DNA of 13,759 nucleotides from a virus (Duplodnaviria; Heunggongvirae; Uroviricota; Caudoviricetes), in IMG/VR virus record IMGVR_UViG_2551306491_000003. One strand, 5' to 3'. This document shows positions 8,455 through 13,759 of this stretch, piece by piece. The position numbers and the translations under genes were made by a program. How positions within the stretch are numbered: position 1 is the stretch's first letter; every line of letters starts with the position of its first letter. The notes under the pieces are model-generated. The model was not told the origin of the DNA. It worked only from the letters and a program-made list of their open reading frames with translations, and searched no databases.

Positions 8455-11400
8455 ATGGGTAAAGGAAGCAGTAAGGGGCATACCCCGCGCGAAGCGAAGG
8501 ACAACCTGAAGTCCACGCAGCTGCTGAGTGTGATCGATGCCATCAGCGAAGGACCGATTGAAGGTCCGGTGGATGGATTAAAAAGCGTGCTGCTGAACAG
8601 TACGCCGGTGCTGGACAGTGAAGGTAATACCAACATCTCCGGTGTCACGGTGGTGTTCCGGGCCGGTGAGCAGGAGCAGACACCGCCGGAGGGATTTGAA
8701 TCCTCCGGTTCTGAGACGGTGCTGGGTACGGAAGTGAAATACGACACGCCGATCACCCGCACCATCACGTCGGCAAACATCGATCGTCTGCGCTTTACTT
8801 TCGGTGTGCAGGCACTGCGGGAAACCACCTCAAAGGGGGACCGGAATCCGTCGGAAGTCCGCCTGCTGGTTCAGATACAGCGTAATGGTGGCTGGGTGAC
8901 GGAAAAAGACATCACCATTAAGGGCAAAACCACGTCGCAGTATCTGGCCTCGGTGGTGGTGGATAACCTGCCGCCGCGCCCGTTTAATATCCGGATGCGC
9001 AGGATGACGCCGGACAGCACCACAGACCAGCTGCAGAACAAAACGCTCTGGTCGTCATACACCGAAATCATCGATGTGAAACAGTGCTACCCGAACACGG
9101 CACTGGTTGGCGTGCAGGTGGACTCGGAGCAGTTTGGCAGTCAGCAGGTGAGCCGTAATTATCATCTTCGCGGGCGCATTCTGCAGGTGCCGTCAAACTA
9201 TGATCCGGAAAAACGCACTTACAGCGGCATCTGGGACGGAACGTTAAAACCGGCATACAGCAACAACATGGCCTGGTGTCTGTGGGATATGCTGACCCAC
9301 CCGCGCTACGGCATGGGGAAACGTCTTGGTGCGGCGGATGTGGATAAATGGGCGCTGTATGTCATCGGCCAGTACTGCGACCAGTCAGTACCGGACGGCT
9401 TTGGCGGCACGGAGCCGCGCATCACCTGTAATGCGTACCTGACCACGCAGCGCAAGGCGTGGGATGTGCTCAGTGATTTCTGCTCGGCGATGCGCTGTAT
9501 GCCGGTATGGAACGGGCAGACGCTGACGTTCGTGCAGGACCGGCCGTCGGATAAGGTGTGGACCTATAACCGCAGTAATGTGGTGATGCCGGATGATGGC
9601 GCGCCGTTCCGCTACAGCTTTAGCGCCCTGAAAGACCGCCATAATGCCGTTGAGGTGAACTGGACTGACCCGGACAACGGCTGGGAGACGGCGACAGAGC
9701 TTGTGGAGGACACGCAGGCCATTGCCCGTTACGGTCGTAACGTCACGAAGATGGATGCCTTTGGCTGTACCAGTCGGGGGCAGGCACACCGTGCCGGGCT
9801 GTGGCTGATTAAAACGGAACTGCTGGAAACGCAGACCGTGGACTTCAGCGTGGGCGCAGAAGGGCTTCGCCATGTACCGGGCGATGTCATTGAAATCTGT
9901 GATGATGACTATGCGGGGATCAGCATCGGTGGGCGTGTGCTGGCGGTGAACAGCCAGACCCGGACGCTGACGCTCGACCGTGAAATCACGCTGCCATCCT
10001 CCGGCACCACGCTGATAAGCCTGGTTGACGGAAGTGGCAATCCGGTCAGCGTGGAGGTTCAGTCCGTCACCGACGGCGTGAAGGTAAAAGTGAGCCGGGT
10101 TCCTGACGGTGTTGCTGAATACAGCGTGTGGGGGCTGAAGCTGCCGACGCTGCGCCAGCGCCTGTTCCGCTGCGTGAGTATCCGTGAGAACGACGACGGC
10201 ACGTATGCCATCACTGCCGTGCAGCATGTGCCGGAGAAAGAGGGCATCGTGGATAACGGGGCGCACTTTGACGGTGACCAGAGCAGCACGGTGAATGGTG
10301 TCACGCCGCCAGCGGTGCAGCACCTGACCGCCGAAGTCTCCGCAGACAGCGGGGAATATCAGGTGCTGGCGCGATGGGACACGCCGAAGGTGGTGAAGGG
10401 TGTGAGCTTCCTGCTTCGCCTGACCGTGGCAGCGGATGACGGCAGTGAGCGGCTGGTCAGCACGGCCCGGACGACGGAAACCACATACCGCTTCACGCAG
10501 CTGGCGCTGGGGAACTACAGGCTGACAGTCCGGGCGGTAAATGCGTGGGGACAGCAGGGCGATCCGGCGTCGGTATCGTTCCGGATTGCCGCACCGGCAG
10601 CGCCGTCACAGATTGAGCTGACACCGGGCTATTTTCAGATAACCGCCACGCCGCATCTTGCGGTTTATGATCCGACGGTACAGTTTGAGTTCTGGTTCTC
10701 GGAAACGCGGATTGCGGATATCAGGCAGGTTGAAACCAGCGCGCGTTATCTTGGTACGGCGCTGTACTGGATAGCCGCCAGTATCAATATCAAACCGGGC
10801 CATGATTATTACTTTTATATCCGCAGTGTGAACACCGTTGGCAAATCGGCATTCGTGGAGGCCGTCGGTCGGGCGAGCGATGATGCGGAAGGTTATCTGG
10901 ATTTTTTCAAAGGCAAGATAACCGAATCTCATCTCGGCAAGGAGCTGCTGGAAAAAGTCGATCTGACGGAGGATAACGCCAGCAGACTGGATGAGTTTTC
11001 GAAAGAGTGGAAGGACGCTAACGATAAATGGAATGCCATGTGGGGCGTCAAAATTGAGCAGACCAAAGACGGCAAACATTATGTCGCGGGTATTGGCCTC
11101 AGCATGGAGGACACGGAGGAAGGCAAGCTGAGCCAGTTTCTGGTTGCCGCCAATCGTATCGCGTTTATTGACCCGGCAAACGGGAATGAAACGCCGATGT
11201 TTGTGGCGCAGGGCAACCAGATATTCATGAACGACGTGTTCCTGAAGCGCCTGACGGCCCCCACCATTACCAGCGGTGGAAATCCACCGGTATTTTCCCT
11301 GACATCAGACGGAAAGCTGACCGCTAAAAATGCGGATATCAGTGGCAGTGTGAATGCGAACTCCGGGACGCTCAACAACGTCACGGTAAATGAAAACTGT

Positions 11401-11868
11401 ACGATTAAGGGCATGCTGGAGGCGACTCAGGTCAGAGGTGACTTCGTTAAAGCTGTATCCAAATCATTTCCGAAACAGGCTGGTACGTGGGGTAACACGG
11501 AAACACCAAACGGGACGGTTACAGTCACCATCAGCGATGATCATAACTTTGACCGTCAAATCATTATTCCGCCCATTATCTTTAACGGAATAGCGTATAG
11601 CGATCCGGGAAGTGGTAATAACCCGGGAGGTACAAGATACACGGGTTATGGTTTTGAAGTTCGCAAAAACGGTGTATTAATCGCATCCAGAGAAACTAAA
11701 GGGGCCATTCCCGGTAGCTACAGTGCGGTTATTGATATGCCGAGTGGCAGGGGAAGCGTCACTCTGGAGTTTAAGGTTTTCCATAAAGGCAATCAGCGGG
11801 CAGGTAATATCACCGACTGTACGGTGATTGTGACCAAAAAAGCGGCTTCCGGCATCAGTATCCGTTGA
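8455..11868 (+). CDS. J: Central tail fibre / host specificity protein J (lambda gpJ-like), 1137 aa
   Basis: RBS ggag 8443..8446 then ATG 8455. Size close to lambda J (1132 aa) and next in the conserved order. The C-terminal about 250 aa would be the receptor-binding region. Confidence 0.9.
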
Positions 11869-11889
11869 AATATTTATAACCCTAATAAC

Positions 11890-11914
11890 GGGCGCCAGAA
11901 ATGGCGCCTTTTTT
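11890..11914 (+). terminator. Intrinsic terminator downstream of J
   Basis: ggcgcc-agaaat-ggcgcc hairpin (6-bp GC stem) followed by tttttt (11909..11914). Confidence 0.65.
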
Positions 11915-11938
11915 ATTGCAGAAAATCGGGAGGTAATT

Positions 11939-12538
11939 ATGCGTAAAGTTTGTGCAGCAATTTTGTCCGCAGCCATTTGTCTGGCCGTATCCGGTGTGCC
12001 TGCATGGGCGTCTGAGCATCAGTCCACGCTGAGCGCAGGATATCTTCATGCCAGTACGGACGCTCCCGGCAGCGATGATCTGAACGGGATTAACGTGAAA
12101 TACCGTTATGAGTTTACGGACACACTGGGGCTGATTACGTCCTTCAGTTATGCCAACGCCGAAGATGAGCAAAAAACGCATTACAGCGATACCCGCTGGC
12201 ATGAGGATTACGTGCGTAACCGCTGGTTCAGCGTGATGGCAGGGCCGTCTGTGCGTGTGAATGAATGGTTCAGTGCGTATGCGATGGCGGGTGTGGCTTA
12301 CAGCCGTGTGTCGACTTTTTCCGGGGATTATTTCCGCGTAACTGACAACAAGAGGAAAACGCACGACGTGCTGACCGGAAGTGATGACGCTCGCTACAGC
12401 AACACATCTCTGGCGTGGGGGGCTGGCGTGCAGTTTAACCCGACCGAATCAGTGGCCGTTGATGTCGCTTATGAAGGCTCCGGCAGCGGTGACTGGCGCA
12501 CTGACGGTTTCATCGTGGGTGTCGGTTATAAATTTTGA
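11939..12538 (+). CDS. lom: Outer membrane beta-barrel protein Lom (Ail/Lom/PagC family), 199 aa with signal peptide
   Basis: RBS gggagg 11928..11933. N-terminal signal peptide MRKVCAAILSAAICLAVSGVPAWA. Aromatic-rich beta-strand pattern ending in terminal Phe (GVGYKF), typical of outer-membrane barrels. Sits between J and stf as lom does in lambda. Confidence 0.85.
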   Translation: MRKVCAAILSAAICLAVSGVPAWASEHQSTLSAGYLHASTDAPGSDDLNGINVKYRYEFTDTLGLITSFSYANAEDEQKTHYSDTRWHEDYVRNRWFSVMAGPSVRVNEWFSAYAMAGVAYSRVSTFSGDYFRVTDNKRKTHDVLTGSDDARYSNTSLAWGAGVQFNPTESVAVDVAYEGSGSGDWRTDGFIVGVGYKF

Positions 12539-12560
12539 TTAGTAACACAGCGTTATGACA

Positions 12561-12586
12561 GCCCGCCGGTTCAGGCGGGCTTTTTT
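12561..12586 (+). terminator. Intrinsic terminator downstream of lom
   Basis: gcccgcc-ggttca-ggcgggc (7-bp GC stem) followed by tttttt. Confidence 0.7.
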
Positions 12587-12597
12587 GTGGAGTGGGT

Positions 12598-13759
<1,162 letters not shown>

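Follow-up and report, generated by a model that had tools for sequence, protein, structure and literature searches.

Proteins of the Lom family are classic lysogenic-conversion factors. The established route of late read-through in lambdoid phages is Q antitermination, and in lambda itself Luk and Szybalski (1983) reportedly mapped the tandem terminators t'J1-t'J4 just downstream of J. In the lambda records J02459 and NC_001416 no terminator is annotated in the J-lom-stf region; in the GenBank record of phage Ayreon both elements that flank lom are annotated as terminators. Expression in lysogens has been described for lambda lom and bor (PMC7067206, PMC1151598), the lom gene of Phi24B has been described as constitutive (PMC4651098), and an array study of a lambda lysogen did not detect lom and stated that little is known about its promoter (PMC2147009). 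A literature search found neither a mapped promoter nor a mapped transcription start for lom. The layout in which lom is bracketed by terminators is common and ordinary, and it is explained by textbook Q antitermination. A second body of work that bears on such genes concerns the morons, defined by Juhala/Hendrix 2000 and reviewed in PMC3594210.

The DNA analyzed here (the window, 13,759 nucleotides in full) comes from a lambda-like prophage and comprises its block of tail genes, in which Z, U, V, G, H, M, L, K, I and J were recognized by Pfam. Downstream of J follow an Ail/Lom protein and the N-terminus of a side-tail fibre, and every gene lies on the + strand. The elements relevant to lom and its surroundings are:

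2262-2285, + strand: terminator in the V/G spacer, GCCCCGG-TTAT-CCGGGGC followed by T6, -15.0 kcal/mol
8455-11868, + strand: J, tail tip / host specificity gene (list of open reading frames; seven J-specific Pfam domains)
11549-11579, + strand: candidate, best sigma-70-like site in the 3' part of J (TTGACC, 19 nt, CATTAT; matrix score 10.4)
11873-11882, + strand: non-coding motif TTTATAACCC, 3' of the J stop and 5' of the hairpin (alignments)
11890-11914, + strand: intrinsic terminator 1 (J/lom), stem 11890-11909, T-run 11909-11914
11915-11938, + strand: lom leader, 24 nt, with the allele-specific sequence AAAATCGGGAGG (sequence, variants)
[quoted passage not shown]
12560-12586, + strand: intrinsic terminator 2 (lom/stf), stem 12560-12581, T-run 12581-12586
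12587-13759, + strand: stf leader and side-tail-fibre N-terminal region (sequence; Pfam phage_tail_N)

The gene calls and coordinates of an earlier note on this DNA were right, and so was the family assignment of lom, whose Ail_Lom match is full-length (E 1.8e-131; 436 bits, the cut-off being 23; residues 1-199 aligned to profile positions 1-199). The product shares 47% identity with lambda Lom in a MAFFT alignment and 44.9% by tblastn. The stf reading frame starts with the ATG at 12598 and runs beyond the end of the window; its product matches phage_tail_N from residue 3 (E 3.3e-68).

Positions 11700-12700 are 100% identical to chromosomes of E. coli O157:H7. In O157:H7 TR01 the prophage occupies the attachment site of lambda and is flanked by ybhC and ybhB/bioA (L162, 893-936 kb). 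Its late genes share one direction, the Q antiterminator gene lies ~22 kb upstream of lom, and the annotation upstream of the tail genes names Q, holin, terminase, portal and capsid genes. This prophage is devoid of the immunity and replication region, a truncated bet being joined to ninE, and lpxR is inserted beside a truncated antiterminator fragment. The type III secretion effector genes nleB2, nleC, nleH1-1 and nleD are found just 3' of stf and the following tail-fibre C-terminal-domain gene. Given the lost immunity region, the regulation of the source prophage may not be lambda-like.

Intrinsic terminators were sought with a strict definition that demands a stem of 7 or more Watson-Crick pairs (5 or more of them G-C) which closes a loop of 3-8 and is followed within 1 nt by a T5 run. 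Three sites in the window comply, all of them intergenic and on the + strand; the - strand yielded none, and there were 0 in 300 dinucleotide shuffles. A loose scan was not enriched (18 found vs 12.6 +/- 3.5 expected). Two of the strict sites are the elements around lom, each of which combines a G+C-rich stem-loop with a directly following U-run. The stem of terminator 1 has 8 pairs, 6 of them G-C, a GAAA loop, a T6 run and a folding energy of -15.1 kcal/mol, and that of terminator 2 has 8 pairs, 7 of them G-C, the loop GGTTCA, T6 and -17.6 kcal/mol. Folding z-scores of the two elements are -3.9 and -3.5.

The evolution of both elements was followed in a sample of Lom relatives made up of 80 viral contigs and 75 genome loci. 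The J/lom hairpin occurs in the forms GGGCGCC/GGCGCC, GGGCACC/GGTGCC and GGGCGTC/GACGCC, with compensatory double changes at two stem pairs (G-C to A-U and C-G to U-A). Pairing is preserved in 100% of the cells (112/112, from 14 distinct variants) and the T6 run is invariant. A double change is seen in 5 of the 14 distinct rows, which are closely related sequences, and the pair-count measure was reached in 82 of 500 shuffles; this covariation is supportive, not decisive. Stronger evidence than covariation comes from distant relatives, in which unrelated stems occupy one and the same site. In lambda and in the Citrobacter prophage L092, stems unrelated to that of the window are followed by a homologous T-run and leader. 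The lambda J/lom stem, CGTCCG-GGAA-CGGGCG, reaches -9.0 kcal/mol and is weaker than that of the window. Behind the three differing hairpins (window family, lambda and Citrobacter L092) the leader follows the consensus TTTTTTATTGCA.AAA..GAGAGGT.

The variants of terminator 2 have four stem pairs changed on one side only, and G.U pairing is kept in 7 of the 9 changed cells. One-sided changes that mostly retain G.U are to be expected of a folded + strand RNA and not of a DNA-level palindrome. The element is near-identical to the terminator of lambda, and a mosaic boundary lies inside lom: from ~12472 on, that is, through the last 65 nt of lom and terminator 2 into stf, DNA identity to lambda is ~67-100% in 30-nt windows, most of them at or above 77% (12472-12900 compared with lambda, L002). 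Since the end of lom, terminator 2 and stf are lambda-like despite a Lom identity of only ~45-47%, terminator 2 travels with the stf module.

As judged from sequence comparison, the hairpins at 11890-11914 and 12560-12586 are confirmed as genuine, evolutionarily maintained intrinsic terminators, in agreement with the earlier claim that two such elements flank lom. Structure is kept over sequence among the relatives, which lends this assignment moderate support as these are close relatives. The same hairpins might instead serve mainly as stabilizers of RNA 3' ends, as processing barriers or as recombination hot spots. Their positions match mosaic boundaries, with changes of J type and of lom type around them, two IS elements have inserted at or near hairpin 1, and a hairpin behind the abundant tail-tube gene V would fit differential mRNA stability. 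A stabilizer needs no U-tract, yet the T6 run is invariant; moreover, all three strict sites are on the coding strand, and the G.U-tolerant substitutions fit a folded + strand RNA. A function of this kind in place of termination is therefore quite improbable, although the stabilizer and terminator roles are not mutually exclusive.

The alignments contain several additional features of the J/lom hairpin and its neighbourhood. A loop-flip variant, in which CCAGAAATGG is changed to CCATTTCTGG, is present in L005, L006, L024 and L033 (equivalent to 11897-11902). The loop is swapped for its reverse complement and the stem is unchanged, the mark left by an inversion or a template switch in a hairpin. 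L035 (~45-1470) has an IS4-family transposase gene on the upstream side, with the breakpoint inside the 5' arm of the J/lom hairpin. In L025 (19-1362), where only the last ~36 nt of J are kept, an IS66-family transposase stands in place of all preceding sequence. A search of Rfam gave no match at gathering score and three sub-threshold matches driven mainly by the terminator hairpins. One of these, at 11882-11964, is to the Aggregatibacter sRNA AaHKsRNA82 (33 bits, the gathering score being 51.4; E 0.001-0.006). It takes in hairpin, loop, T-run and AUUGCAGAAAAUC and exceeds a generic terminator resemblance. In VT2-Sakai (L083, ~1990-2020) the 11-mer TTTTTTATTGC follows the terminator of a 933W-type lom, and the same 11-mer follows the J/lom hairpin of the window. 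This may be a coincidence or a shared module end.

The short non-coding motif TTTATAACCC is nearly invariant across loci with the hairpin family of the window, which include several J C-terminal types, and is absent in lambda and Citrobacter L092. The 5-6 nt that separate it from hairpin 1 are free to vary. The motif is accounted for neither by a promoter in sense or antisense direction nor by a conserved pairing. An antisense promoter or a bidirectional terminator was considered at this place and discarded: as judged by eye, the -10-like hexamers differ from variant to variant, and the tail on the - strand does not qualify as a T-run. An anti-Shine-Dalgarno pairing predicted by RNAfold, between CCC at 11880-11882 and the GGG of the leader, was likewise dropped, the majority variant being GAGAGG and the pairing not conserved.

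The third strict site shows that such elements are not confined to the surroundings of lom. It is located after the V stop (2241) and ends ~14 nt before the likely ATG of the chaperone gene G (~2300), is as strong as the terminators around lom and separates two essential genes, so that a canonical terminator precedes the whole series of essential genes that begins with G and ends with J. The ratio of V to G expression may be set by it as well. The bracketing of lom by terminators asserted in the earlier note is real, and it is not specific to lom. On the far side of lom, only 11 nt lie between T-run 2 and the ATG of stf, with the Shine-Dalgarno GGAG (12589-12592) alone in between. As the stf start follows T-run 2 by 11 nt and the G start follows the V/G terminator by ~14 nt, late transcription must pass the terminators that flank lom. 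The earlier picture of an insulated lom was correct about the sites and omitted this late-operon context, in which the position of the stf start codon forces read-through.

The window has the composition of a lambdoid late operon, with co-oriented tail genes in lambda order and, in the TR01 annotation, Q, lysis and head genes upstream. Read-through of the terminators is most plausibly brought about by Q antitermination; we infer this from what is established for lambda, from the presence of Q in the source prophage and from the lack of room for a promoter before stf or G. The best explanation of the locus as a whole, which we hold with good though not full confidence, is that genuine terminators are set in a lambdoid late operon, ignored by Q-modified polymerase in the lytic cycle and obeyed by unmodified polymerase in the prophage. 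Both hairpins would be Rho-independent terminators within the late operon Z-U-V-G-T-H-M-L-K-I-J-lom-stf, placed around a cargo slot. During lytic growth, Q-modified polymerase coming from the late promoter would ignore them, and J, lom and stf would be carried on one long transcript. In the silent prophage, unmodified polymerase would halt at the hairpins; terminator 1 would then block stray transcription from J and thereby insulate lom, and terminator 2 would end any lom transcript ahead of the tail-fibre genes. Prophage expression of lom, if any, would depend either on leakage through terminator 1 or on a start, at this terminator or upstream of it, that is weak, non-consensus or activator-dependent.

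Where a prophage transcript of lom could begin is constrained by the space available. As the earlier note had stated, exactly 24 nt (11915-11938) lie between T-run 1 and the ATG of lom, too few for a promoter and taken up by a Shine-Dalgarno leader only (GGGAGG at 11928-11933, 5 nt ahead of the ATG). Its statement that lom has no obvious promoter was borne out as well. Promoter scans, by consensus and by position-weight matrix, covered the window, lambda and 8 other J types. The consensus scan of the window found no sigma-70-like site near lom, and in the 120 nt upstream of lom the matrix scan gave at best 5.2 bits, a level at which about one chance hit is expected over such a length. Searches for PhoP boxes returned chance-level counts and nothing near lom. 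The hexamer AATTAT at 11935-11940 was rejected as a -10 element, because it overlaps the start codon and transcription would begin inside the reading frame, unable to yield Lom. Given the strong ribosome-binding site and no consensus promoter within reach, any prophage-state transcription of lom must start at or upstream of terminator 1, or leak through it.

The last ~12 codons of J (KKA.SGISIR*) are common to otherwise differing J C-terminal types, according to the C-terminal protein comparison and the alignment, and the conserved block at the 3' end of J begins only ~45 nt upstream of the J stop. If one promoter served every carrier of the lom cassette, it would have to sit in that ~45-nt block, in the hairpin or in the leader, and no recognizable promoter was found in these three segments.

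One way to supply lom in the prophage would be a cryptic promoter in the 3' part of J, a fraction of whose transcripts leaks through terminator 1. The earlier note had named read-through of the J terminator and a promoter inside the 3' end of J as the two sources, a fair list of options; the sole good site in the 3' part of J is probably a coding by-product. This site, at 11549-11579, is the best sigma-70-like site of the region, one of the ~6 highest-scoring of 68,640 window positions, and lies ~310 nt 5' of terminator 1. GC is also lower over the last 600 nt of J (48%) than in the rest of the gene, and no terminator is fully efficient. The -35-like match, ~385 nt upstream of lom, recurs at an equal relative position in lambda and six other J types, and a conserved internal J promoter was considered on this ground; it was rejected, as the recurrent -35 consists of the F-D-R codons of the conserved protein motif DDHxFDRQ and no -10 is conserved with it. 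The -10 of the window, formed by P-I-I codons, is specific to its J type and absent from other J types with the same lom cassette. With a spacer of 19 nt in addition, and with a strong terminator in the way (8 bp, -15 kcal/mol, T6), the site remains a candidate and supply of lom from it is rather unlikely.

Another possible source is a non-consensus or activator-dependent promoter that overlaps terminator 1 or the leader, as transcripts that start in or just after the hairpin would escape termination. The T-run and leader consensus conserved behind three differing hairpins is in line with this proposal, as are the reports of lambda lom expression in lysogens (PMC7067206, PMC1151598). The lambda equivalent, TTTTATTATAAAA, contains a good -10-like hexamer, TATTAT, 21 nt before the ATG. 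The corresponding hexamer of the window, TATTGC, lacks the critical final T, none of the hairpin variants contains a -35 match, the matrix scan is at chance level, there is no PhoP box, and the resulting transcript would have a leader of only ~12 nt. Such an overlapping start is accordingly unlikely for the window.

A bolder version regards the J/stf junction as a dedicated slot with a prophage-state start for its cargo built into terminator 1 or into the conserved T-run leader. Transcripts begun in or after the hairpin would escape termination and anything arriving from J would be stopped, and TTTATAACCC together with the leader kept behind three unrelated hairpins would be parts of the element. 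We regard this version as very unlikely.

This lom allele might also have no prophage-state expression at all and be made from the late Q-antiterminated transcript only, the terminators being generic punctuation of the late operon. The missing promoter signal, a GC content and codon usage that match those of the tail genes, the comparable terminator between V and G and the failure to detect lom in one lambda lysogen array study (PMC2147009) all point in this direction. Against it stand the lysogenic expression of lambda lom (PMC7067206, PMC1151598) and the description of Phi24B lom as constitutive (PMC4651098); moreover, terminator 2, 11 nt before stf, would serve no obvious purpose. Late-only expression is thus possible, if doubtful.

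The occurrence of the layout was surveyed in complete E. coli genomes, of which 4,803 of 5,426 contain a match, often in several copies; as many as 14 copies of lom can occur in one genome. A separate observation concerns lambda-type lom genes (43-54% identity to the query) that were retrieved on short or ~48.5-kb low-coverage contigs of unrelated organisms, among them Neobacillus, Kitasatospora, Pseudomonas, Shewanella and Bradyrhizobium (L095-L107, L117, L122, L129, L152-L153 and L156). This looks like contamination of the assemblies with lambda DNA. In O157 prophages the J/stf junction adjoins nle effector loci, and predictions of which prophage accessory genes are expressed would benefit from knowledge of how a silent prophage turns on cargo at this junction.

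How far the lom cassette resembles a moron, as the earlier note had suggested, depends on the property considered, and the moron definition fits only in part. The downstream terminator and the variable cargo stand: terminator 2 provides the gene with its own terminator, and presence or absence at the same position is seen in related phages (Gifsy-1 and Yersinia phage P400). The promoter and the deviant base composition do not, as directly upstream no promoter of its own was recognized by searches for consensus-type sites, the T-run being 24 nt from the ATG, and the composition is unremarkable. With a GC content of 54.2%, a GC3 of 58.0% and a codon distance of 0.087, lom resembles the window (GC 55.3%) and its neighbour genes (codon distances 0.05-0.14). 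The comparison of GC content and codon usage with J that had been proposed along with the moron idea thus revealed no difference from J or from the other neighbours.

In Gifsy-1 (L163, 4183-4600), the small signal-peptide gene STM2589.1n replaces lom between J and stf. A terminator-like hairpin lies ~20 nt ahead of its ATG, and the gene is followed by a second hairpin (type AGCC.GCC...GGCGGGC-T6), which immediately precedes the Shine-Dalgarno of stf and resembles terminator 2 of the window. In Yersinia phage P400, J directly abuts the next gene without any cargo. These arrangements suggest that J and stf enclose a small slot, bracketed by terminators, whose cargo can be exchanged.

Like a moron, the lom of the window is an accessory, non-essential gene within the late operon that has its own terminator on the 3' side and varies as cargo among phages, and its lambda homologue is expressed in lysogens; unlike a moron, it has neither a recognizable promoter nor a compositional difference and is preceded as well as followed by a terminator. 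The lom-like genes of Fels-1 and VT2-Sakai fit far better. The Fels-1 gene lies between M and L and has a GC content of 45.7% vs 56-58% in its flanks. Both genes are AT-rich (46%), have upstream spacers of 126 and 90 nt (32% and 24% GC, respectively) and a single terminator on the 3' side, which is the textbook moron layout.

Further counterparts are the Q-antiterminated late operons of lambdoid phages, with which the locus shares co-oriented late genes, internal intrinsic terminators and, in the source prophage, an upstream Q gene; it departs from them in that its prophage has lost the immunity region. Gene order, short spacers and a hairpin with T-run after both J and lom are common to the window and to lambda, Ayreon, cdtI and BP-4795. 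Lambda differs from it in two respects: the Lom of the window is a different allele (~45-47% identity), and its J/lom hairpin is unrelated in sequence to that of lambda, with homologous lom leaders sitting behind the differing hairpins of lambda and Citrobacter.
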